A stretch of DNA of 64,000 bases, from the NCBI RefSeq assembly GCF_006345805.1, contig NC_042998.1:131750001-131814000 (forward strand), given 5' to 3'. Below the pieces are notes generated by a model. That model ran no database searches. It had not been told where the DNA came from and was given only the letters and a program-made list of their open reading frames with translations. This document shows, piece after piece, positions 71 to 57,197 of this stretch; the first letter of the stretch is position 1; each line of letters starts with the position of its first letter. A program made the translations under genes and the position numbers. Origin of the DNA: Octopus sinensis. Its lineage: Eukaryota.

Positions 71-245
71 GGCGGCGAGCTGGTAGAATCGTTAGCACGC
101 CGGGTAAAATGCTTAACAACTTTTCGTCTGTCTTTACAACGATCTGGGTTCAAATTCCGCCAAGGTCGATTTTTGCTTATTACCCTTTTGGGATCGATAA
201 AATAAGTACCAGTTGAGATCTGGCCTTGTGCCAACATTCAAAACC
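71..245 (+). mobile_element. tRNA-derived SINE, family B (GGCGGCGAGCTGGCAGAA head), diverged copy
   Basis: A-box-like head, GTTCAAATTCC B-box, then GGTCGA...GATAAAATAAGTACCAG body shared with many copies in the window. Confidence 0.85.
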
Positions 246-439
246 AATAAGTAGATACTATGTATTATAGGATATCGGGTATTGATTTATTTGCCCGGAG
301 ATCTATATTGCTGTTAAAACTGCTCCGATTCTCTGTCTCACACATGCATGTTTTCAAAACTCTTGTAACTTATCCGAATAGAAATAGCAACCAAATCTTC
401 CTCAAATCACCTACTGTCTTAGAAAAATTACATACACGT

Positions 440-660
440 GTTTGCGTGTCTGTGTTTGTCCCCCCAACATCGCTTGACGACCGATGCTGGTGTGTTTACG
501 TCCCCGTAACTTAGCGGTTCGGCAAAAAAGAGACCGATAAAATAAGTACTGGGCTTACAAAGAATAAGTCCTGGGGTCGATTTGATCAACTAAAGGCGGT
601 GCTCCAGCATGGCCACAGTCACATGTCTGAAACAAGTATAAAAGAGAAAAGAAAAGAAAG
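440..660 (+). mobile_element. 3' half of SINE family A, apparently inside an older repeat (about 370-775)
   Basis: TGTTTGTCCCCC...GGCGGTGCTCCAGCATGGCC...GAAACAAG and AAAAG tail; flanks resemble the repeat at 60925-61090. Confidence 0.8.
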
Positions 661-1366
661 AGATTAGTTAAGGTGACACTAGACGAATTATGACGGAATA
701 AATACGGGATGTTCACGTCTGGAATGTCTTTGATCATTGATCTGCTGGATCAAGGTTGGCTAGGCTCTAAAAAAATAATACCATCGTTATGTACAACTGA
801 GTTGTCTTTAGCTTATCGTTTATAATTTCCTTTCGTACGTTCTTTCTTTACGTGGGTATCTCGATCGATTTTTCGGTTTGTATGTTCCTGTGATAGTAAG
901 GTGATAATAGTAATGTGGTAGTTGTAATAGTGATGGTGGTAGTGGTGATGGTGGGGATAGTGGGGATGGTAGATGTCTAGCTTAGGTATTAGTCAAAGTG
1001 TTGAAGTATATTTTACTTCTTCCTAACACCTCACACTCATCATCACAACCCCAACTCACCCACTCACACATACTCTCTCTCCACTCGTCCACATTAACTT
1101 ACAGAGCAATATCTATGATTTCACTGTAGTTTATGTCATTGTTCAAAAACCGGTGGTGATGAGGTGGAATAGGCGGGGTCTCCCAGCCCACATATCCACT
1201 TTACTCTTTTTTTTCTTTATTATATGTTTTTATTTATTGGTCTTTCGTATTTGTTTCTCCTTTTATTTTGTTAAATGCTGTTTGATCGACGTCGTGGTGT
1301 CTGGTTTTCTCACGGCTATGTAGTTCGCTGATGGCTAGAAATGCCGTGTACCACTTATTTACGACT

Positions 1367-1430
1367 TTCATATCACACATGACATATATGCCCATAAATA
1401 TATACATATATATATTATATATATATATAT

Positions 1431-1519
<89 letters not shown>

Positions 1520-1576
1520 CTATATGTATATATTTATGGGCATTATATGTCATGTGTGATATGAATATATATAATA

Positions 1577-1630
<54 letters not shown>

Positions 1631-1667
1631 ATATATGTATATATATGTAATATATATATAGTATATA

Positions 1668-1706
<39 letters not shown>

Positions 1707-1952
1707 ACATGTATGTATATTTATATATGTATATATATATGTATATATTGTATATATATGTATATATATGTATATATATGTATATATATATATGTATATA
1801 TATATATGTATATGTATATATATAGATATATATATATGCCTATATATACATACATATATGCCCACATATATAGACATATATATGTGTGTGTATATATGTA
1901 TATATGTATGTGTGTGTATATATATATATGTGTGTGTGTATGTATATATGTA

Positions 1953-1985
<33 letters not shown>

Positions 1986-2280
1986 GCCCATATATATACA
2001 TATATATATACATGTCCATATATATACATATATATATATATCCATATTTATATGTGTGTGTATGTATACATATATATGTATGTATGTATGTTTCTATGTA
2101 TGTATGTATGTGTTCATATATATGTATACATACAACGATACATATCTATGTATACTTACGCATATATGTATATGTGTGTGTGTGTATGTCTATATGTATA
2201 TGTATATATATATATATTATATATATATGTGTGTGTGTGTGTATATGTATGTGTATGTTTGCATGAATATATGTATGTGT
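1367..2280. repeat. Compound (TA)n/(TG)n microsatellite with a fold-back at 1367-1565
   Basis: Direct inspection. Confidence 0.95.
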
Positions 2281-2984
2281 GAATTTGTTTCTATACATTC
2301 ATCTCTACGGTTAGCTGTCCACACCCACATATAACCGAATTCGATTTATTTTTAAGTTGAAAATATATTCTAAGTAAAAAGTCAACGCAATAGTTAATAT
2401 GTATATTTGTAGGCTTTAAAGATTCTATAAATACATACTAGTATATCTTTTTCATTTCTATTTTAACTCCCATACTGTGTTACGAAGGTTACATCTACAA
2501 AGCTTGTAAAATAGTTTTAGAGACATCAAATAAAGTAAATATACTAATAAATATAATAGGTATATACTAAACACTCAAACTCTATACATCGTGTAGTCAT
2601 CTGAATGTCTGACAGTTATGATAAAGGGAATATATTTTGTTGATGAGTTTTTAATAAGACTAAAACTTGTTCACCATATTCACCAAAGATCAGACACACT
2701 CTTCACTGTATGCTAGCGTTCAATTGTTTTTAATTGCTGTTAATTGATTTAAATTTTGAAGTGTTGTCCCTTGCATTTCTTGAACAGATTTAATCACTGT
2801 GATGAAAAAAAAAAAAAGCAGAAAAGAAATTCTCTACAAGAATAAATTACTCCTTTCGAATTTTTGGCCCATGTTCAGCAATTTTGAGAGGATTAGTAAG
2901 CCAATCTATCAAATTCACTTACAAAGTATTGGTCGATTCGAAAGAAAAATTAAAATAGAAGACACGTGCCCAGGTGCCATGCAG

Positions 2985-3200
2985 TGGAGCCACATGGCCT
3001 AGTGGTTAGAGCAGCGGACTCGCGGTCAAGGGATCGCGGGTTCGAATCTCAGATCGCGGGTTCGCCACAACTTTCTCTCACTCCTTCCTCTTGCAGCTCA
3101 CCTGCAACGTCCGGCGTCCCGTCCAGGTGGGGAACCTATACGCCAAGGAAACCGGGAAACCGGCCCTATGAGCCAGGTGTGGCTCGAGAAGGAACAAAAC
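2985..3200 (+). mobile_element. tRNA-derived SINE (third family) nested in a minus-strand family A SINE (about 2900-3250)
   Basis: TGGCCTAGTGG A-box and GGTTCGAATC B-box; host SINE interrupted at GCAGTG and resumes ACTGAGCCC. Confidence 0.75.
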
Positions 3201-3544
3201 TGAGCCCAGGACCATTGATTGGGAGGTAAACAACTTACCACAGAGCCACGAGATTTTCAAGCGCTTCTTTTAAATTCAAAAATGCAATCTTTATATATGA
3301 TTCGGTGAGATTTCTCCATGACGCTTTTACTTAAATTAGGAAGCATACTATGTTCATTCAATTTTTGTTATTGTTCCCACTATCGAAACGTGCGCGTTTT
3401 ATACTAAAATTTCCTAAATTTTCTTTTACACATGTCCCAATGAAAACTGTAAGATTTGCTGATGATATGTTTAGTGAATCTGTTGTATCCCATCAACCCG
3501 TTAATACGGTGACTACTTTCCTGTCGGAGTTGTAATTCTATTGT

Positions 3545-4171
3545 TTGTTATTTTTTTATTGCCCACAAAGGGCTAAATATAGAGGTGACAGACAAAGGGA
3601 TTAAGTCGATTACATCGACCCAAGTGCGTAACTGGTACTTATTTAATGGACCCCGAAAGGATAAAATACAAAGTCGACCTCGGCGGAACTTGAACTCAGA
3701 ACGTAAAGACAAACGAAATGGCGCTTAGCATTTCGTCCGGTGTGCTAACGTTTCTTATTTCTTTATTGCCCACAAGGGGCTAAACATAGAGGGGACAAGC
3801 AAGGACAGACAAAGGGATTAAGTCGATTACATCAATCCCACTGCGTAACTGGTACTTATTTAATCGACCCCGAAAGGATGAAAGGCAAAATCGACCTCGG
3901 CGGAATTTGAACTCAGAACGTAACGGCAGACGAAATACCCATTTCTTTACTACCCACAAGGGACTAAACACAGAGAGGACAAACAAGGACAGACAAACGG
4001 ATTAAGTCGATTATATCGACCCCAGTGCGTAACTGGTACTTAATTTATCGACCCCGAAAAGATGAAAAGCAAAGTCGACCTCGGTAGAATTTGAACTGAG
4101 AACGTAACGGCAGACGAAATACCGCTGAGCATTTCGCTCGGCGTGCTAACGATTCAGCCAGTTCGCCGCCT
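3545..4171 (-). mobile_element. Trimeric head-to-tail SINE family B
   Basis: Three units of GTCGATT..ATC.ACCC..GTAACTGGTAC..GAACTCAGAACGTAA; complete head only at about 4171. Confidence 0.9.
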
Positions 4172-4770
4172 TTATTCTACTGTTTGTATTATTAGCTTGC
4201 TCAAGCCTACGAGCATTATGTTATTGAATTATGACAGGCAGCGAGTTGCTAGATTCATTAGCGAGTCGGATAGAATGCTGAGTGGTATTTTTTCTAGTCC
4301 TTTACGTCCTCTTCCAAATTCCGCCGAGGTTGACCTTGTCATTCATCAAATCGTGATCGATGAAATAAGTCCTAGTAAAATTGCTGGCTTTGTGCCAAAA
4401 TTTTAAAACATTATTGAATTATGAACCTACGAGAGAGACTTTGTGTAGATCTCGGACAGCATGAACAATGTTTTATAACAAGACAGACTCACTGGAGGGT
4501 AGTGTAGCATGAAATATCCCATAAACAGACAAGATGATCAAGATTTGGATATTGTTGATTCAAGTGACTGCACGATGTATTATAGAGATTGGGTGTTCTG
4601 TATATGCCTTTTGTACTTGCTATGATAGTTTTATTTGATGTCTTTAAAACTACTTTACAAGCTTTGTAGATGTATAACCTTCGCAACATAGCATGGGAGT
4701 TAAAATAGAAATGATAAAGAAATATATTTGGATATAGTCGATCTTAAGAGCTAGTTGAATAGCTAATATA

Positions 4771-4939
4771 GGCACAGGAGTGGCTGTGCGGTAAGTAGCT
4801 TGCTTACCAACCCCATGGTTCCGGGTTCATTCCCACTGCGTGGCACCTTGGGCAAGTGGCTTCTACTATAGCCTCGGGCCGACCAAAGCCTTGTGAGTGG
4901 ATTTGGTAGACGGAAACTGAAAGAAGCCCGTCGTATATA

Positions 4940-5032
<93 letters not shown>

Positions 5033-5203
5033 TGTGTGTGTGTGTATAGTTTGTGTGTCTGTGTTTGTCCCCCAGCATCGCTTGACAACCGATGGTGGTG
5101 TTTTTATGTCCCCGTAACTTAGTGGTTCGGCAAATGAGACCGATAGAATAAGTACTAGACTTCCAAGGAATAAGTCCTGGGGTCGATTTGCTCGACTAAA
5201 GGC
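4771..5203 (+). mobile_element. SINE family A (GGCGCAGGAGTGGCTGTGTGGTAAG head) with internal (TA)n(TG)n
   Basis: tRNA-like head, GGCACCTTGGGCAAGTG segment, internal microsatellite, conserved 3' half. Confidence 0.9.
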
Positions 5204-5384
5204 TGCAGCCATGCTGGTGCACCGCCTTGGAGAATTTCTAGTTGAATGAAACGACCTCAGTGCTATTTTTAAAGCATGGAACTTATTTTGTCGATATCTT
5301 TTGCCGAACAGCTACGTTACAAGGGTTGCTAAGTGATTGGTGTCAAGCGGTGGTGGGAAACACACACACACATTCTTGCTCTAA

Positions 5385-5592
5385 TTCATTTACTTGTTTC
5401 AGTCATTTGACTGCAGCCATACTGGAACACCGCTTTGAAGGGTTTTAGTCGAACAAATCGACCCCAGGGCTTATTTTTAAAGCCTAGTACTTATTCAGTC
5501 GGTCTGTTACGCCGAACCGCTAAGTTACGGGGACGTAAACGCACCTGCGTCGGTTGTTAAACGATGATGGAAGGACAAACACAGACACACAA

Positions 5593-5642
<50 letters not shown>

Positions 5643-6014
5643 TCATCATCATCATCATCATCATCATCGTTTAACGTCCGCTTTCCATACTAGCATGGTT
5701 TGGACGATTTGACTGAGGTCTGGCGAACCAGATGGCAGCACCATCTTGATCTGGCAGAGTTTCTACAGCTGGATGCCCTTCTTAACGCCAACCACTCCGA
5801 GAGTGTAGTGGGTTCTTTTACGTGCCACCGGCACGAGGGCCAGTCCAGCGATACTGGCAACGACCTTGCTCGGATGTTTTTTTTTCACGTGCCATGGCAC
5901 AAGTGCAGTAAGGCGACACTGGTAACGATCACGCTCGGATGGTGCTCTTAACGCTCCATATATATATATTATATATATATATATATTATATATATTTGTG
6001 GTGTATGTGGTGTG

Positions 6015-6083
<69 letters not shown>

Positions 6084-6281
6084 CACACATACACACAATA
6101 TATATATATATATATATATAAAGGGCTTCTTTCAGTTTCCGTCTACCAGATCCACTCGTAAACCTTTGGTCGGTCCGAGGCTATAGCAGAAAACACTTCT
6201 TCAAGGTGCCACGCAGTGGGACTGAACCCAGAACCATGTGGTTGGTAAGCAAGGTACATACCACACAGCCACTCCTGCGCC
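5385..6281 (-). mobile_element. SINE family A whose internal microsatellite hosts another SINE
   Basis: 3' half 5385-5600, 5' half 6122-6281 ending ACTCCTGCGCC. Confidence 0.85.
5641..5957 (-). mobile_element. 3' part of a SINE with (ATG)n tail
   Basis: Minus strand GGTTGGCGTTAAGAAGGGCATCCAGCTGTAGAAAC ... GGACGTTAAACGATGATGATG. Confidence 0.75.
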
Positions 6282-7199
6282 TATTATTCACTTTTTCTTA
6301 TTCTTTTTCAATGAGTATCCTTCGTTAGCTTTGTTTAGTATAATAGACACAGGAATCTCTACGGCTACAAACTAGATGGGTGAGAGGTTGTAGCCGATGT
6401 TAAGCACACTTAACATTGGTTGACAATCGGTGAGAGGCTGCAAAGATAGTCACAACCACACACAAACACACACATACACACACACACACTACGCGCTTCT
6501 TTCAGTTTCCATCAACTAAATCCACTCATAAGGCTTTGGTCGGCCCGAGGCTATAGTAGAAGACACTTGTCCAAGGGCCACGCAGTAAGGCTGAACCCGG
6601 AACCGTGTGGCTGGGAAGCATGCTTTTTACCACACAACCATACCTGCGCTAATCTTTTTTTTTATTTTTTAATTCTACGCCTTTTACCACAAATGAATAT
6701 ATTTAAAGACGCATTTGGTGGTATTTGATTCTGTAATTCTATGTTAAAGCAAACTCGATCGCGAAATCGTTTTTTCGAAACATTGCAAAGCAGAATCAAC
6801 AACAATTAAATGTTTTCATAAATAGGCTTGCTTTAAATGATGAGAGAGAAATGATTACAGAGTTAGTGAGAGTGGAAGATAATATGAAGACTGAGGTAAC
6901 ATAAAGGTTTCGAGTACATCGATAATTGCACTGATCCATTAACAGAAGAAGCACAGCTTAAATATTCACTAAGCTCTCATATTTTATTAACTTGCACTTT
7001 GGCTTCGTCTACACTATATACGTTGTTCAGAAAGTATAAACACATCCGCTTCTCAATCCCGGTTTATCAATCTCCACTAGTAACGAAACCGAATAAAAAT
7101 TCAGTTACATATGTATGATTTGATATTCTATATTCGTTTCCTAGTGAGTAAGCCGAGATTAAACCACAAATATGTGTATGATGTGTGTGTGTGTGTGTA

Positions 7200-7232
<33 letters not shown>

Positions 7233-7462
7233 GAGAGAGAGAGAGGGAGAGAAAAGTAAAGAGATTTAGCGCTAAGCTACAAGGTCGTACGTAGGTGTAC
7301 GTCGAAAGACATTGATGCTCAATAGAAAAAGTGAAACGTAAGTGAATATAACGATATGTCTCTATTTTAAATAACTGGCAAGCCTGGATAATAATGCAAC
7401 GTGTGTATATAAATATATATAGATAGATAGATAGATAGATAAAACTTATGTATGTATGTATG

Positions 7463-7530
<68 letters not shown>

Positions 7531-7532
<2 letters not shown>

Positions 7533-8958
7533 TGAGAAAGTTGGTGTGTGAAAGCACGTGGTTGAATATATAGAAAATAGTAAAAAGTGAAAAAACTACA
7601 GAAGGCTTGTTTTAAAAGGTTAAAAAATATATATTTGAGTCATTATGTCTGAAGAATGTTATAAATTTTTTTCATACAATGACATAGTTTTTGAAGAAAT
7701 GACCGGTTTCGCGTTCAGCTTTTCAAATTTCTTACATCTTTATGTTTACGTTGAGAAGTGTTGAGAAGAGTTCCAGATAACGGGAGGTAATAAGTGATTT
7801 CTTCCGGTGTAAGGGAGATAATCGCTTAATATTTCTTGCCTTTTTTTGGGAGTGTATAAGAATGCTGGAATGGTTAAGTTTGGGCTTGTATTTTTCAATG
7901 AAGAATGTTTCCTTGTTTAGTCTAATTTGCGTTGGTGTTCCGATAGCACATTGGTAAAATGGAAAGATTAAAAATTGTGGTAGTAGTTGCTTTGCGCATT
8001 TCTCAATGTGCTCACTAAAGGGTATCATTCTGTATTCTGGGAATGCAATCTGTTGTCGATGCAGTGTGCATCTACGTCTGAGTGATAGTCCCGTGGACCC
8101 CACGTAGTTTTGGTGGCAGCCCGAGCATTTTATGACATAAATTATGTCTTCAGAGGCACAAGTAAAATTAGATTTGATCTTGAATTTCTGTCCCTCTTTG
8201 AAGAGGAATTCTGATCATTCTAGAATCTAGCAGGTTTGGACATGTTGCACAGTTCGATCTACCACATTTTTTTACTTTTGCATCCGTAATTTCAGAAAAC
8301 AATTTTGCCTTTGTGAGAATCTTTTTAAGTGATTTAGGTTGTTTGTAGCTTTTAAGGATTTGGTGTATGTTTAGAATTTCCTTTAATTTGGGGTCCTTAT
8401 GAAGTATTGGTAAATTCTGGGTGATGATGGTGAAGGCTTCTTTGTTTCTGGGGTTGCATGTGGATATTTAAGGTAGTATTTTCGGGGAAGGTGTGTTGTT
8501 GTGTTGAACTTTTCTCAAAGTTTCTATGTTGATTTCTGTTGCACGTCTGATCCCATCCTCTATGAGTTGAGCTGGGTAATGTCTGTCAATTAGGGTGTTT
8601 TTGAGTTCTTGCAGTCTAAAGTTCCTGGTATTTTGTTCTGACACTATTGTGCATATCCTTCTTGCAAGGTTGAAGGGGATGTTTGTTTTAGTGTGTCTTG
8701 GGTGGCATGAATCAAAAAGTAGGTATTGTTTGGCGTCTGTGGCTTTGTAAAAAATGTCTGTTTCTATTTTAAGGTTAATTTTTTTAATTAGTATATCCAA
8801 GAATGGGAGCTCCTTTTTGTTGTATTCCATTGTGAACCGTATATCTGGGTTTATGCTGTTCAATAGGTTTTGAATTTTAGGAGTTTATCTGTGTTTTCAT
8901 TCCAGAGTATAAAACAATCGTCCAGGAATCGTTTCCAATTCTCTTTTATGTATTGAGT
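7531..8958 (-). mobile_element. 5'-truncated Penelope-like element: RT C-terminal half, GIY-YIG endonuclease and 3' UTR, frameshifted
   Basis: WKRFLDDCFILW (RT catalytic), LPFLD, YL.F.SCHP.H, IYVIKCSGCHQNYVGST, LRRRCTLHR, ETFFIEKYKPKLN; ends in (TA)n. Confidence 0.92.
7694..7733 (-). ncRNA. Minimal type I hammerhead ribozyme, U3-A8 variant, in the PLE 3' UTR
   Basis: AAGAAAU UUGAAAA GC-UGAAC-GC GAAA CCGG UC AUUUCUU: 7-bp stem I, palindromic stem III. Confidence 0.75.
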
Positions 8959-10015
8959 TTGTGTCCACTTCATCTATGGCTAGTAGGACATCTTTTTCGC
9001 TAATGTCAATACATTCTATTGTAACCGCCTCGCTGGTTATAGGTGAGGCAGTAAAGAAGTCCACTGGTCCGTTCACTTGTCTGTGTTCCAACGGGGTGGT
9101 AAAGACACTTTTGAACTGGTCATTCAGCATCTCACTGATCATAGTCGGACTGTCTGTGAGGGAGCCATCCTTTTGGAGGAGGGGTCCTATCTTGTAGTGC
9201 ACTGAGACTGTTTCTTTCGCGTAATGAAAGAAGGCCTTTGGGTTTGATTTAATGTTTTTTATAACCCAGGCTTCTTTGTCTGCTTTCTCCTTCACATTGG
9301 CTCGTTGCAGCCTTTTTTCGATCTCCATCAGTGTTGTTTTTAGGCGGGACGTTTCGCTACTTTTGGGATGTTGGTTGAGACGATTTGCAACCTTCGTCCG
9401 TCGTCTCATGACATACGGCTTGCACAGAAGACATGAAACATTCTAGTTTCATGCCAATGTCTGATGTGGAGAGACATTCCGGCCAGTCCTCTCTGAGGAT
9501 CTCTTTTTGGATCAATTTCCAATCTGCTTTGTGGAAGTTCAGATTGGAGAGATTTCGGCTGCTTCCTTTAGGCTGTATGTCTCTGGTTACTTTTGGCCCA
9601 AACATAGACAGCTCTGTTATGTTGTGATCCGAAACTGATGTCGGTGTCACTTTCACATCATGAATAATGTCCATATTGTTCGTGAAGCAGAGATCCAGAA
9701 TGTTATTCGCCCTAGCTGGCTTGAGTACAACTTGCTCCATGAATAAGGCATTGGTGAGGTTAAGCAGGGACTCCACCTGTACTTGCTTGCAATGATTCAT
9801 TCCTGAAAGTATGTGACCTTCGGGCCATTTGACGTTGGGGAAGTTGAAATCACCCATAAGAAATATGGTCACGTGGTGTTCCAGATTCATGAGGATTTCT
9901 TTAATTCTTGTGAGGCAATCTTCAAACTTGCCTATGTGATTTGGGGCATCCGGTGGGCAATATGTATTGCATATGACTATATTATGTTGTCTTATGTATA
10001 CAATTAAGGTGTCAC
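8955..10015 (-). mobile_element. CR1-like LINE ORF2 fragment (APE endonuclease and linker), pseudogenised
   Basis: MGDFNFPNVKW, NILDLCFTN, SDH, NFHKADW, IKSNPKAFFHY, LNDQFKSVFT. Confidence 0.9.
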
Positions 10016-10036
10016 ATACCGAATTATGTTATATAT

Positions 10037-21585: not shown

Positions 21586-22461
21586 CAATGTTGTATCAAA
21601 ATGTTCCCGATTTAATCCTGTAACGCGCCAACAGATGGCAATACACGGTCGTGCGCGCCGTGAGAGCTAGTATTGACCTTCCTTCATAACGCAGTGTGCC
21701 AAGTAACATTACTGTGTTTACTTTGCAAGTTGTGAAATTTGTGTTTTTTTTTCTATCACTTGTACGTTGTAGTCTGCGATTTTGTCACGGACAGGAACAA
21801 AGAGCCAACGTCAAATTAGGCAAGTCTGCTACATAGACATTGAGCATGCTTCGATAAACTTACGGTGATGAAGCAATGAATCGTACGCAAAGTTTCGAGT
21901 GGCACGGGTGCTTCAAAAGCGAAAGAACGTCCCTGGAAGACGATGAGCGATCTGGAAAACTTGCCACGAGCGTCACCCTGGGAAATGTGGCATTGTGCAT
22001 CGAGAATTCGTCTCCAGGGCCAGACCGTGAATTGAGAGTGCTGCTGCGAAAGCGACCGAATCTGTGGAGTGTGAATAATTGGATTCTTCACGACTGTGCA
22101 CCCTATCACCGAACTCTCCGAACTCTTGAGTTTCTCACCAAAGACAACATGGTATCGCTTCCGCACCCACCCTATTCGCCAGATTTAATATCTGCGGACT
22201 TCCATCTCTTCCTCAAGAGGAAAATGCAGCTGAAAGGTCGCCGTTTTAACACCGTTACCGAGATCCAGAACGAATCACAGAACGTACTCGACTCACTTAC
22301 GGAAAACGACTTCCAGGCTGCATTCCAAAAGTGTTGGGAACGCTGAGATGGTATATTGCTGCACAAGGCGACTATTTCGAAGGAAATGATGTAAAAACTT
22401 AGGTAAATAAGTTATTTTTTATTAAACATAACTAGTCCAGGAACCTTTTGATACCACTTCG
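21586..22461 (+). mobile_element. Internally deleted mariner element with transposase pseudogene
   Basis: TA-flanked diverged TIRs; FEWH..FK....LEDDERSG, WILHD.AP.H, PHPPYSPDL..DFHLF. Confidence 0.92.
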
Positions 22462-45476: not shown

Positions 45477-45882
45477 AACAAGTATTTAAAAGGAAAGATC
45501 AGGGTTTCGCATTGCAGCGAAACTAGAGGTGGTTTTAAGATTAATTGTAAAGTGTATTTGTAAAGTTTAGTTGTAAAGTTAACCATAAAGTGTGTTTGTA
45601 AAGTTTTATTGTAAAGTTTAATCGTACAAACAAGTATTTAAAATGTTATTTTTGTTGGAAAAAAAAGGACACATATGAACGTTTATTTTAAAGGTAGGAA
45701 ACGAAAGGAAGGGTCAGTTTCGCATTGCAGCGAAACTAGAGGTGATTTTAAGGTTAATTGTAAAGTGTATTTGTAAAGTTAATTGTTAAGTTTAATCATA
45801 AACTGTGTTTGTAAAGTTTTTATTGTAAAGTATAATTGTAAAGTATAATCGTAAAGTCAATTGTAAGGTCTAATTGTAAAGG
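45477..45882. repeat. Imperfect direct repeat (period about 210 bp) built from about 13-bp ATTGTAAAGT subunits
   Basis: GTTTCGCATTGCAGCGAAACTAGAGGTG at about 45503 and 45717. Confidence 0.85.
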
Positions 45883-45889
45883 TATTCAC

Positions 45890-46249
45890 GGTTCGTCACG
45901 CAGCGGGGGCGAGATGGCCGTCTCATTTGCATCATAATTATATTCATTTCATTATCATTTTCCATTCGTTTTTATGACCCCGCATGTTTGTGTATGTCCC
46001 CTCTGTGTGCAGGCCTTATGTCTATAATAAAGAGAAAAAGGCATGCTACTCCAGACTGACGACGAGAAAGACTCGGAAACTAGTCTCTGGTTGCAGGCTT
46101 AGCTGGGTGGGGGTGCTTGTCTCCCCCTTGTAAACATAAGGACACAGGAAATGTGTCAAGGCCGACAGAAAGCGTTGATGTTTCCTAGGGATAAATAGCG
46201 GTGGTGTGATTTCCTTTATGGGACTGTCACATTAAGTTGACAGTTATAC
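45890..46249 (+). mobile_element. Retrozyme-like or non-autonomous PLE element A; 5' end approximate
   Basis: Contains a canonical HHR; architecture shared with 56244-56661. Confidence 0.65.
46051..46090 (+). ncRNA. Minimal type I hammerhead ribozyme, fully canonical core
   Basis: CCAGA CUGACGA CGAG-AAAGA-CUCG GAAA CUAG UC UCUGG; predicted cleavage after GUC at 46085. Confidence 0.9.
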
Positions 46250-46314
46250 AACTACTCTATCGTACCACCACTGCTTATATCTCTCTGAGATATTCAGAAA
46301 TGTAATATTTCTAT

Positions 46315-52000: not shown

Positions 52001-52044
<44 letters not shown>

Positions 52045-52050
<6 letters not shown>

Positions 52051-53493
52051 AAATCCGTTCTGTCGCTCTCTGTGTGTGTCTTCTAGGATCTCGGGCATCC
52101 TCCATCCGATTGGGCTCAAATTTGATACGTAGATACTAACTGTATCAAGGCGTGTATAAGTCTTGAAAAAATTACAAAAATCGATTCCAGGTGAGAATGC
52201 GATCGATAAAGCCATGGGAACGTGCATTTGTACGCGCAATTACATCAGCTGTTGCGATCGATTCTGGGTCCGATGAACTTTGTCAGACAGTTTACCCCGA
52301 TCTATCTTCTAATTTCGGTGACCATCAATGGTTGTGTGATAGAGCCATTTTAGCGCCAACCAATGCCAACATCAATACGCTTAACACTCGCTTCCTTCGT
52401 CAACTGCCGACCCAGGAACGAATCTACACATCCGTTGATTCAATTACTGACCCAGAGCAAGTCGTGGTGTACCCGACCGAATTTCTTAACTCACAAGAAC
52501 CATCGGGTTTGCCACCCCATAAACTCTGCCTCAAGGTTGGAAGTCCCATTATTCTCCTCCGAAACTTGGAATCCCCACGACTTTGCAATGGCACTCGGTT
52601 GGTTCTCACCCAACTTTTGGATGACGTTCTCGAGGCAAAAGTTATCACGGGTCAAGGAGCAGGGGATGTTGTTTTTATTTCCCGCATGCCATTGATTCCG
52701 TCGGACTGTGTTTACCCGATGAAACGCGTTCAATTCCCTATTCGCCTGAGCTTCGCGATGACCATCAACAAAGCACAGGGGCAGTCATTGAAAGTCGTGG
52801 GGTTGGACCTCAGCACTCCCTGCTTTTCGCACGGACAACTGTATGTGGGCTGTTCGAGAGTTGGCTGTTCGACAAACCTTCTCTACTACGCTCCAGACGG
52901 AGTAACAAGGAATGTGGTTTACAAGATTGCGCTCCACTAGCTTTTCCATGCCCTTGAACATCCCGTAAAGTAAGTTAGCTTAAAATTATTTAGTTAGTTC
53001 CCTAGGTTGTTGCTTTTCATCAAAAATCAGCCCAAGTTGATTTCCTACATGTTTTATCGGATAAACTTGTTATTGTCCCAGGTATGTTCTCATAAATTCA
53101 TCATGCTTTTCCATCTAGATTTACCTACAGCTAACCTATTTGCATGGATCATTTTTGTCATGCTTTTCTTCCATCAACCTGTACATAACTGCACCTTCCA
53201 TTTTTTGTCATTTTGCACTGCTTAAAGGCACGTTTCTTTCCTGCCAAGCATACTGTTTAAACCATGTTTGTGTTCTCCCAGTCAACAGCCTTATCATTAC
53301 TGGTAATTTAAACTCTTCGGTTGTATATTTGTGTGAATAAAATCGTTTTTCTTTTGCTGGTGTCTCAAATTTAGGTTAAATCAGTGTTTCTCAAACAGGA
53401 GGCCTATGGGACGGTCGGACAAGTTGTTTTGAGAAAATTTGGTTTAATGTTTGACAACTCAGCAACGTCCATTGGACGGGGGGCATTTTGCTC

Positions 53494-53494
<1 letters not shown>
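52045..53494 (+). mobile_element. Helitron deletion derivative, copy 1
   Basis: TATATAAAA start, Pif1 C-terminal fragment, 3' hairpin CGTCCATTGGACG then CTCG-T. Confidence 0.85.
52197..52940 (+). CDS. C-terminal half of Helitron Pif1-family helicase (no Walker A); frame open
   Basis: [36 protein letters not shown]....[40 protein letters not shown]. Confidence 0.8.
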   Translation: MRSIKPWERAFVRAITSAVAIDSGSDELCQTVYPDLSSNFGDHQWLCDRAILAPTNANINTLNTRFLRQLPTQERIYTSVDSITDPEQVVVYPTEFLNSQEPSGLPPHKLCLKVGSPIILLRNLESPRLCNGTRLVLTQLLDDVLEAKVITGQGAGDVVFISRMPLIPSDCVYPMKRVQFPIRLSFAMTINKAQGQSLKVVGLDLSTPCFSHGQLYVGCSRVGCSTNLLYYAPDGVTRNVVYKIALH

Positions 53495-53560
<66 letters not shown>

Positions 53561-53566
<6 letters not shown>

Positions 53567-55007
53567 AAATCCGTTCTGTCGCTCTCTGTGTGTGTCTTCT
53601 AGGACCTCGGGCATCCTCCATCCGATTGGGCTCAAATTTGATACGTAGATACTAACTGTATCAAGGCGTGTATAAGTCTTGAAAAAATTACAAAAGTCGA
53701 TTCCAGGTGAGAATGCGATCGATAAAGCCATGGGAACGTGCATTTGTACGCGCAATTACATCAGCTGTTGCGATCGATTCTGGGTCCGATGAACTTTGTC
53801 AGACAGTTTACCCCGATCTATCTTCTAATTCGGTGACCATCAATGGTTGTGTGATAGAGCCATTTTAGCGCCAACCAATGCCAACATCAATACGCTTAAC
53901 ACTCGCTTCCTTCGTCAACTGCCGACCCAGGAACGAATCTACACATCCGTCGATTCAATTACTGACCCAGAGCAAGTCGTGGTGTACCCGACCGAATTTC
54001 TTAACTCACAAGAACCATCGGGTTTGCCACCCCATAAACTCTGCCTCAAGGTTGGAAGTCCCATTATTCTCCTCCGAAACTTGGAATCCCCACGACTTTG
54101 CAATGGCACTCGGTTGGTTCTCACCAACTTTTGGATGACGTTCTCGAGGCAAAAGTTATCACGGGTCAAGGAGCAGGGGATGTTGTTTTTATTTCCCGCA
54201 TGCCATTGATTCCGTCGGACTGTGTTTACCCGATGAAACGCGTTCAATTCCCTATTCGCCTGAGCTTCGCGATGACCATCAACAAAGCACAGGGGCAGTC
54301 ATTGAAAGTCGTGGGGTTGGACCTCAGCACTCCCTGCTTTTCGCACGGACAACTGTATGTGGGCTGTTCGAGAGTTGGCTGTTCGACAAACCTTCTCTAC
54401 TACGCTCAGACGGAGTAACAAGGAATGTGGTTTACAAGATTGCGCTCCACTAGCTTTTCCATGCCCTTGAACATCCCGTAAAGTAAGTTAGCTTAAAATT
54501 ATTTAGTTAGTTCCCTAGGTTGTTGCTTTTCATCAAAAATCAGCCCAAGTTGATTTCCTACATGTTTTATCGGATAAACTTGTTATTGTCCCAGGTATGT
54601 TCTCATAAATTCATCATGCTTTTCCATCTAGATTACCTACAGCTAACCTATTTGCATGGATCATTTTTGTCATGCTTTTCTTCCATCAACCTGTACATAA
54701 CTGCACCTTCCATTTTTTGTCATTTTGCACTGCTTAAAGGCACGTTTCTTTCCTGCCAAGCATACTGTTTAAACCATGTTTGTGTTCTCCCAGTCAACAG
54801 CCTTATCATCACTGGTAATTTAAACTCTTCGGTTGTATATTTGTGTGAATAAAATCGTTTTTCTTTTGCTGGTGTCTCAAATTTAGGTTAAATCAGTGTT
54901 TCTCAAACAGGAGGCCTATGGGACGGTCGGACAAGTTGTTTTGAGAAAATTTGGTTTAAATGTTTGACAACTCAGCAACGTCCATTGGACGGGGGGCATT
55001 TTGCTCG
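53561..55007 (+). mobile_element. Helitron deletion derivative, copy 2, helicase fragment frameshifted
   Basis: Near-identical to copy 1, with 1-bp indels. Confidence 0.85.
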
Positions 55008-55871: not shown

Positions 55872-56050
55872 AGAATTCACGAAAAAAATCAAAAGATGAA
55901 GACAGGTGGTGTAGACAACAAACAGATGTATTAGCTTAATGCTCGGGAAGTGAAAAAGTCTTTAACGTTTCGAGCCTATGCTCTTCCACAAAAAGGAACA
56001 CAGAAAGAAACAAGAAGAGAAAATAAAGAATGTGTAGTGGCTAGCAATCT
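55868..56050 (-). mobile_element. PLE-type terminal fragment abutting (TA)n
   Basis: Homologous to 62480-62582 (+); carries a decayed HHR-like motif. Confidence 0.6.
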
Positions 56051-56243
56051 ATTGGGTTTTCTCAATTTAAAAATTATTACTTATGATAAGTATATATATA
56101 TATATATTTTCTTTTTAATTATTAAAAATCAAATTAACACCGGTCTAATGGAAGAAAGTCTGTGTGTAAGCGCTTTTCACTGCTTTCAGCTTTTCAGACG
56201 TTGTTGGTTAAACAATAGTTACCGGCACAACAGAATAAATAAG

Positions 56244-56661
56244 GTAAAGTATAGAAGCCATCTTATCATGGCTAACCACATTGGGGAGGGGGTGTTACTG
56301 TAGCTTTATAGCCCCAAGAGATCTTCGTCTCTAGCTGGCTTTAGACACAATATCTGTGTCCTTGGAGTATTTGCAAAGGGAGGCCATCCCTTCCTCGCAA
56401 GCCTGAGTGATACGCTCGAACTAGTTTCGGGATTGTTGTCCCTCGTCAACGGGCGGTAACCAACAGGTAGCGATGAAAGAGAAGGCTCCTTTGCAAATGA
56501 TGTCGAAAAACGAACAGTAAGCATAATTAAATCTCAGAATGAGATTGAAACAGTAATCGCTCGATAATGTAAAGTATAGAAGCCATCTTATCATGGCTAA
56601 CCACATTGGGGAGGGGGTGTTACTGTAGCTTTATAGCCCCAAGAGATCTTCGTCTCTAGCT
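56244..56661 (-). mobile_element. Retrozyme-like element B: 325-bp unit plus 93-bp terminal redundancy
   Basis: Exact direct repeat 56244-56336 and 56569-56661 bracketing an HHR. Confidence 0.75.
56413..56455 (-). ncRNA. Minimal type I hammerhead ribozyme, C3U variant or damaged copy
   Basis: CGCCCG UUGACGA GGGA-CAACAA-UCCC GAAA CUAG UU CGAGCG. Confidence 0.75.
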
Positions 56662-57197
56662 CATGTCAATAAAATGTGAAGGTGAGGTTAATATTTTATT
56701 TACTTATTTTTGATTACTAGGGTGTCGTTCACGATGATTTTCGTCTACATGGTCAGAGGATCAATAAAAGTTTACTAGAGTGTACTAAAGCGATTGACAT
56801 TGAGATTACGAAAGAACAGGACTGGACACGGACAGACGATATACAAGGACAAGGACATACTGGACAAGGATATACTGGACAAGGACAGGCGATATACAGA
56901 TGTTACCTCACGGCAACGGAACTGCTAATGCGTTAACCTTTACCCGTAGTACTTTTTGAAAACTGGACCGGATTCTACATCATCCTGAGCACCCTATTAT
57001 CAATGTTACCCTTTGACTGATTCCCTTTAAATGAAAAAAAACTCAAATTTCAATAAGAAATTATATACGGCCAAGGGCGGGAACCTCGAGTAGCAAAAGA
57101 GCACAATTGATAACTTCTTCGAAACATCCTGTTTCATTGTATTGCATATTATAACATCTATACGTACGTATGCATATATATATATATATATATATAT

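Follow-up and report, generated by a model that had tools for sequence, protein, structure and literature searches.

A 418-bp hammerhead insertion in octopus DNA as a probable copy of an abundant PLE-dependent retrozyme family

In the window, by which we mean the whole 64,000-nucleotide stretch of octopus DNA analysed here, a 418-bp insertion holds 1.3 units of a short sequence with a hammerhead-like motif, and the question raised by this locus is by which route such an incomplete tandem came to be written into its site. RNA-templated copying, descent from a larger PLE, duplication of the DNA in place and accidental likeness are weighed below; we consider it likely that the element is a dispersed copy of an abundant non-autonomous, PLE-dependent non-LTR retrozyme (pseudo-LTR-like) family of octopus.

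Layout and abundance of the insertion

Read along the ribozyme strand, the whole insertion (56244..56661, minus strand) has the layout R(93)-U(232)-R(93). Re-comparison of the letters confirmed the exact 93-bp over-run described in the first-pass annotation, 56244-56336 being identical to 56569-56661 at a period of 325; on leftward extension the repeat grows to 98 bp with one mismatch, and blastn found no further copy of the 93 bp in the 64-kb window. The 5' partial copy R (56569..56661, minus strand), which forms the 93-nt over-run, may represent a 5'-truncated cDNA end, and is followed by a segment of about 40 nt (56530..56568, minus strand) that has R-like depth in the family. The 3' copy R (56244..56336, minus strand) has its terminal hairpin at 56273-56256, with a short tail beyond it, and its end near 56244 presumably marks the start point of reverse transcription. 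The unit of 325 nt, with a GC content of 0.449, is non-coding, as is usual in size, composition and lack of coding for non-LTR retrozymes. It had been annotated as being without a credible ORF, which is borne out by ATG ORFs of only 20-72 aa in the insertion, a 75-aa frame without a match in the Pfam search, and a 61-aa ORF without a homologue among longer proteins, the last point carrying little weight. No target-site duplication of at least 9 bp was found at the insertion, 7-8-mers lying far from its ends, and the 3' junction offers a 4-nt match only.

At least half of the element's words are present in 20 of the 24 listed runs (10 studies, five organism labels). Contigs of four runs were aligned to 55900-57150 at a likeness of at least 85%, more divergent contigs being left out; X1 and X5 are large, DNA-sized runs, and the other two are guessed to be RNA. 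In X1 and X5, the summed contig depth is 6.5e3-3.9e5 across the element versus 21-108 in the flanks, climbing in the bin 56236-56277 and dropping in the bin 56656-56697, so that the boundaries coincide with the element ends; the ratio to the right flank is 177-6312 (X1) and 1431-8997 (X5). Summed depth is not copy number, and is read here, as an order of magnitude only, as hundreds to thousands of copies of the family. The 418-bp insertion is one member of a very abundant family, with single-copy DNA on either side; a single-copy unit, which the first-pass annotation had named as fatal to its reading, is contradicted by both depth and run content. The flank contigs of X1 (56122-56273, with zero differences to the window) and of X1 and X5 (56632-57150, single-copy and reaching into the 5' R) each enter the element by 30 letters, one below the bridging threshold and as expected where a k=31 contig stops at a repeat, and the listed contigs of the four aligned runs include neither an empty site nor one running across the whole element. 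Next to the element, 55900-56052 is part of an extremely abundant short repeat with a summed depth of up to 4e6. In the two putative RNA runs the element is partly covered at a depth far below that of the adjacent repeat, with strand, ends and circles being invisible in contigs; none of the listed runs with the element is on record as RNA, which carries no weight in either direction. Exact-pattern scans for the element gave no matches in metagenome_contigs, genome_contigs or viral_contigs.

The depth is uneven within the element, and this bears on the origin of its terminal repeat. The bin 56530-56571 stands at 196043 (X1) and 387789 (X5) versus 6514 and 61687, respectively, in the bin 56488-56529, the ribozyme and the upstream arm being several- to 30-fold shallower than R in summed depth; therefore, many family members differ there or are without the ribozyme. 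Since the junction of unit end and R at 56530-56571 is as deep as R itself in both X1 and X5, it belongs to the family at large and not to this locus alone, which speaks against an origin of the 93-bp repeat at the DNA level, either by local duplication after insertion or by collapse of a longer array through recombination or the assembler. A recent duplication or gene conversion would likewise leave identical copies, near-exact duplications occur elsewhere in the window (period of about 1.5 kb, 52020-54932), and no listed contig spans the whole element; a collapsed array, however, would still mean a tandem family, and we regard this origin as quite improbable. Beyond the single ribozyme of this locus, that deep junction bin may point to tandem copies in the family, as may one X5 contig (depth 78) in which the unit end, a damaged R and the unit start are joined head to tail (56586 to 56338, the shorter side having 38 letters). 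This join is not contained in the 1.3 units of the window and comes from another genome; an array as such did not show up among the aligned contigs.

As for other features of the window, the near-exact tandem duplication of about 1.5 kb at 52020-54932 contains a Pif1 helicase remnant (Helitron-like) and has AT microsatellites at its bounds; the closest named match of the helicase remnant is from Octopus bimaculoides (81%), other listed matches being at or below 60%, which makes an octopus the probable host; the richness of the DNA in microsatellites agrees with this. Dimers of 184 bp and 146 bp are located at 3757, 14114 and 59750, and a weak DDE_3 transposase-like match (E 0.006) at 21858-22343 on the plus strand.

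The hammerhead, its relatives and the predicted fold

Rfam alignment, a descriptor search and folding place a type I hammerhead of canonical architecture at 56402..56467 on the minus strand. The Rfam HH9 model matches 56467-56398 with 25.8 bits (E 4.3e-4 for 701 bases; gathering score 52), and the Rfam scan of the whole window returned nothing at the gathering level. A distal helix I, a UUAC/UAU internal loop and a 6-bp helix I with a C56452·A56416 mismatch lead to the core, which runs from U3 (56449) to A9 (56443) with the letters UUGACGA; helix II (56442-56439/56432-56429, 4 bp) is capped by the loop CAACAA, GAA stands at 56428-56426, and helix III is the 2-bp palindrome ACUAGU (56425-56420), followed by U17 at 56419. 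Motif alignment predicts cleavage after GUU (56418..56419, minus strand), and this position (56419|56418), together with the palindromic stem III ACUAGU, reproduces the cut near 56418/56419 proposed in the first-pass annotation. Its term minimal type I hammerhead holds as to type I, not as to minimal, the 6-bp helix I, the 4-bp helix II and the tertiary loops being canonical, and it made no mention of U3·G8, U17 and the helix I C·A mismatch, which depart from the expected core. With its short palindromic helix III and its loop 1-loop 2 motifs, the motif has the canonical type I architecture of non-LTR retrozymes, and matches the definition of the canonical type I hammerhead in the available text of PMC4209133. 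Compared with Hammerhead_HH9 (RF02275), the helix I UUAC internal loop and the CAA-type loop II align to the model, whereas the element differs in its score relative to the cut-off, in the 2-bp helix III and in U3.

The activity to be expected of this core is low. GUU sites are cut more slowly than GUC sites. As far as the accessible parts of the sources go, U3-A8 covariation occurs naturally (PMC3088659, PMC4209133), a halophile variant combines U3 with G8 plus inserted bases (PMC7151607), and mutational scanning of a type III hammerhead found low activity for single changes in the CUGA turn (PMC9901934). Because of the U3·G8/GUU core and the low activity of core mutants in the literature, slow or no cleavage is predicted, probably only as a dimer via the palindromic helix III, whose pairing between two copies is calculated at -7.2 kcal/mol. 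With core variants known in the wider class, U3·G8 would lower the expected activity more than it does the class membership.

That the hammerhead resemblance is accidental or vestigial, the element being a SINE-like or other repeat, would be in line with the Rfam score under the gathering threshold and with the core being off consensus. Motifs with a palindromic helix III of at least 6 nt, however, number three in the window (56449 minus, 46056 plus and 7726 minus) versus one in 30 shuffled windows, as counted with a relaxed hammerhead descriptor that was tuned after the motif had been seen. The second of these belongs to a diverged relative, element B (45900..46260, plus strand), which is located about 10 kb from the insertion and has, at the same place, a hammerhead with the consensus C3-G8 core at 46056, a GUC site and the same helix III ACUAGU, followed by two downstream hairpins. 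The third argument against accident is a sister ribozyme in X6, described below, in the same place. Element B itself has no Rfam hammerhead match at E up to 5, which is the remaining point in favor of accident, an explanation that we regard as very remote.

From core to 3' end, the insertion and element B align with 128 of 211 columns identical (about 61%). The downstream part of the insertion without the core scores 76 against element B, the maximum in 300 shuffles being 64, and the downstream-only score of 78 of element B is the best among 1258 window tiles (mean 34.6, sd 6.2), the top three all being element B. Both elements have two hairpins in common, hairpin 1 of this 3' module lying at 56343..56361 (minus strand) in the insertion; the terminal one is conserved as a structure, its paired letters being different, and directly beyond it the likeness stops. 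Homology upstream of the core was rejected (239 of 300 shuffles as good), as were a terminal repeat in element B (96 of 300 as good) and a GIY-YIG reading of the DNA upstream of it, where tblastn gave no match. The whole fold of element B is unremarkable (z -1.1), and upstream of it there are 13-bp repeats and a 213-bp duplication at 45500-45880.

Loose contig ends at 56422 (X6) and at 56415 and 56498 (X5) represent sister subfamilies that differ in their ribozyme arms. In the X6 sister, known from a single contig, the core reads C3·A8, helix II is again of 4 bp but different, and the palindromic helix III is longer (8 nt). The octopus genome is subject to heavy RNA editing, and we speculate that A-to-I editing could close the C3·A8 mismatch. 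Three T>C changes confined to X6 (56295, 56301 and 56340; A>G on the ribozyme strand) are all at predicted A-U pairs and are absent or nearly so in X1 and X5; RNA editing as their source is not claimed, X6 also having three A>G and two C>T unlisted rows and no matched DNA. As to the core itself, the tallied A>G and C>T changes number 5 and 4 in X1 and 7 and 4 in X5, and listed rows at other sites explain them all. Therefore, A>G at 56449 (giving C3) and C>T at 56444 (giving A8) should each account for less than 5% of the aligned depth in both runs, with the reservations that a single A>C row and a single C>A row in each run have no assigned site, that contigs under 85% likeness lie outside the alignment, and that variants near contig ends can be missed. 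The share of C17 is 1.4% (X1) and 11% (X5). Judged from these tallies, U3·G8 and U17 are apparently the family majority in X1 and X5; a consensus without an intact core had been named at first as telling against a retrozyme, and C3-G8 is indeed apparently not the consensus here. A loose hammerhead pattern gave 120 prokaryote loci, which were rejected as chance, none having both helices convincing or the 3' module.

Folded as a circle, the minus-strand unit reaches -94.0 kcal/mol (z -3.7), with none of 100 shuffles being as good, and a long rod-like stem (56370..56500, minus strand) is predicted to present the ribozyme at its tip. Holding helices I and II in place with an open core costs 0.1 kcal/mol in the calculation; the monomer would be highly self-paired, with its ribozyme free to fold. 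Among the 14 variant sites listed inside the element for X1 and X5 (13 variant rows being hidden from the listing and no linkage between sites being given), 8 are unpaired in the MFE structure, or 9 (p 0.04) counting N17, which the active fold leaves unpaired. The variants at 56317 and 56332 affect the two partners of the same predicted pair (U-A to U·G to C-G), the one at 56359 keeps a G·U pair, the family variant at 56463 restores a pair, and two of the 14 sites (56282 and 56355) break predicted pairs; the structure-keeping variants fit the minus strand, not the plus strand. Since the window at 56463 is unlike essentially all other copies and breaks the distal pair, this copy has at least one private change.

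PLE relatives and the route of copying

A broken PLE 3' fragment, found by profile and homology searches, is located far from the insertion in the same window (7700..8900, minus strand), and comprises an RT thumb region, a CxxxxCxxC linker and GIY-YIG (match E 7.7e-4), with RT/GIY-YIG homologues found. We take this fragment to belong to the Neptune clade. Its Cys linker is as in that clade in the available text of PMC8557442. The fragment adjoins an AP-endonuclease LINE fragment (8900-10028, minus strand) and is followed at 7726 (minus strand) by the third hammerhead-like motif, with U3-A8, a 7-bp helix I, a 2-bp helix II and ACCGGU. The remnant shows that a possible helper class exists in this genome, the partner of the element being a separate matter. 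Between the repeats of the insertion there is no RT and GIY-YIG ORF, as an autonomous PLE would have, and tblastn with a set of PLE proteins found no PLE coding remnant near the insertion or element B; constant attachment to a PLE ORF, which the first-pass annotation had set against its own reading, does not apply at this locus, and the statement covers this locus only.

It is nevertheless conceivable, if unlikely, that the insertion is ordinary PLE debris, derived from an autonomous octopus PLE by internal deletion or as a solo pseudo-LTR and made up of a 5'-truncated pseudo-LTR, a tail and a 3' end; its ribozyme would then be a passenger, and circular RNA would play no part. The R-U-R layout with the deep segment of about 40 nt after the 5' R mirrors a pseudo-LTR plus tail as described in the accessible parts of PMC8557442 and PMC3846280, and what the insertion shares with element B is only the module from ribozyme to end. 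Among 20 PLE loci in bacterial bins, moreover, 11 (three of them overlapping pieces of one contig) have hammerhead-like motifs with palindromic helix III; hammerheads of PLE loci lie on the sense strand and have palindromes similar to that of the insertion, among them ACUAGU in contig CBDHDL010000009.1 (L010-L012). Against this, the ribozyme of the insertion is canonical, whereas in most PLE motifs, both in the 20 loci and in the available text of PMC4209133, helix II is longer and A9 is followed by an additional base; these features of the minimal PLE hammerhead, and its poorly defined loop 1, are absent from the element. The rod fold with its structure-keeping variants, the lack of an ORF remnant and the existence of the X5 head-to-tail join also argue against debris. 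Because retrozymes are homologous to pseudo-LTRs (bioRxiv 10.64898/2026.07.22.740005), this explanation shades into the preferred one, a PLE-dependent retrozyme.

The 3' module of the insertion has no homology to the PLE end of the window or to the 20 PLE loci from other hosts. An alignment of element B with the PLE end of the window (score 79, reached by none of 200 shuffles) was rejected, as it puts the ribozymes out of register. Some of the animal PLEs among the 20 loci (L001-L020), which lie inside bacterial MAGs, are tandem with one hammerhead per unit; their presence there is probably host contamination. No PLE relatives were found in viral_contigs.

In the mechanism proposed for the retrozyme reading, a tandem or partial-tandem donor would be transcribed in the minus (ribozyme) sense, and the RNA is predicted to fold as a rod that is tipped by the hammerhead and joined by the 3' hairpin module, a fold which the family variants fit. 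A PLE reverse transcriptase/GIY-YIG protein would then prime at a nick in AT-rich DNA, with copying beginning just after the terminal hairpin at 56244, passing the intact cut site and the unit junction, and stopping 93 nt into the next unit; the resulting layout, R-U-R without a clear target-site duplication, is that seen in the insertion, and the process is the one we infer. A start after a terminal hairpin common to element B, the deep 40-nt segment at 56530..56568, which may resemble the 30-40 bp pseudo-LTR tail of PLEs, and the missing duplication would fit PLE machinery, for which a tail of 30-40 bp and a sometimes absent target-site duplication are described in the available parts of PMC8557442 and PMC3846280.

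The 3' end of the insert lies 175 nt downstream of the cut site, across which the sequence continues unbroken. A self-cleaved linear monomer, freed by two cuts, has both of its ends at this site and hence could not have served as template without a template jump; a ligated circle, an uncleaved multimer and a PLE-type template jump remain as possible templates, each with the same footprint. Both R copies agree at four family-variable sites, the product of the allele shares, with linkage ignored, being 0.012 (X1) and 0.105 (X5); one template is therefore favored, but no particular kind of template. In view of the weak-looking core, and of the inactivity of 8 of 9 Xenopus dimers in bioRxiv 10.64898/2026.07.22.740005, an uncleaved route is at least as likely as a circle; within the retrozyme reading, we lean toward an uncleaved multimer or a template jump and hold a ligated circle to be a plausible, somewhat less probable template. 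The annotated view of 1.3 units as more than one passage round a circular or multimeric RNA is partly supported, namely by the read-through layout, the multi-copy state and the rod fold, none of which favors a circle over a multimer or a jump. Nor was it new: in the available text of PMC4209133 and PMC7761336 copying of more than one unit is already a published model, and circle-templated copying by PLE enzymes has been proposed there and in PMC7229834. Having one ribozyme, this locus has no means of releasing a circle on its own, and is a dead end in that respect.

We further entertain, as a rather doubtful extension, an octopus superfamily of circular-RNA retroelements in which the 3-8 pair is detuned family-wide (U3·G8 here, C3·A8 in the sister), giving lasting circles and multimers, and in which the 3' hairpin module fixes the start of the PLE reverse transcriptase. 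If this is true, thousands of dispersed copies, alike in their 3' end and unlike in the length of their over-run, would form a genomic record separating circle-templated copying from template jumping.

Comparison with known retrozymes and PLEs

The element is worth comparing with the metazoan non-LTR retrozymes of Cervera and de la Pena 2020 (PMC7229834), which are 170-400 nt long, below 50% in GC, non-coding and without LTR, PBS or PPT, a mussel example having 350-390 bp. It resembles them in unit size, GC content, lack of coding, canonical type I hammerhead whose helix III is palindromic, strong self-pairing of the predicted circle, great abundance and PLEs in the same genome, and differs in having 1.3 units, one ribozyme, a U3·G8/GUU core and a cephalopod host, and in being known here from sequence alone. 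By its sequence, the element would rank as a non-LTR retrozyme in all but the consensus core. According to the available text of PMC7761336, metazoan retrozymes have no conserved motif pointing to a helper, whereas a 3' hairpin module is common to two diverged elements here. No report of a cephalopod retrozyme was found in the literature searched, although Repbase/Dfam, the supplements of PMC7229834 and of the bioRxiv preprint, and Lunse et al. 2016 may already list the family; hammerhead, ribozyme and retrozyme do not occur in the accessible text and supplement of the 2026 Octopus vulgaris repeat annotation (PMC13282606).

Li, Clavereau and Pollet (bioRxiv 10.64898/2026.07.22.740005) derive retrozymes from PLE pseudo-LTRs, find dispersed monomers to be common in 35 species, none of them a mollusc by the text, and report many predicted ribozymes to be inactive in vitro. 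The insertion agrees with theirs as a dispersed monomer of pseudo-LTR-like origin, and under their two-unit rule a one-ribozyme locus is a monomer, not an active retrozyme; it differs in that a matching autonomous PLE was not found among the PLE end of the window and the 20 loci from other hosts. Over-run lengths and 3' ends do not figure in the main text of their study. With PLE pseudo-LTRs, as described in the available parts of Cervera and de la Pena 2014 (PMC4209133), Craig 2021 (PMC8557442) and Arkhipova 2013 (PMC3846280), it shares the partial-tandem layout, the optional 30-40 bp tail, the sometimes absent target-site duplication, the palindromic helix III and variants at core positions 3-8 (U3-A8 there); in contrast to them, it has no RT-GIY-YIG ORF between its repeats and has canonical helices and tertiary loops.

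The copying of animal retrozymes into new sites is still a hypothesis, the mechanism of which is not settled by a single copy; the family would offer a countable footprint, with a fixed 3' end and a variable over-run, and a candidate recognition signal for the helper. Altogether, the element, with its predicted self-cutting, is most likely a new addition to the known animal retrozymes, which would extend them to cephalopods and add an apparently family-wide U3·G8 core and a common 3' module.
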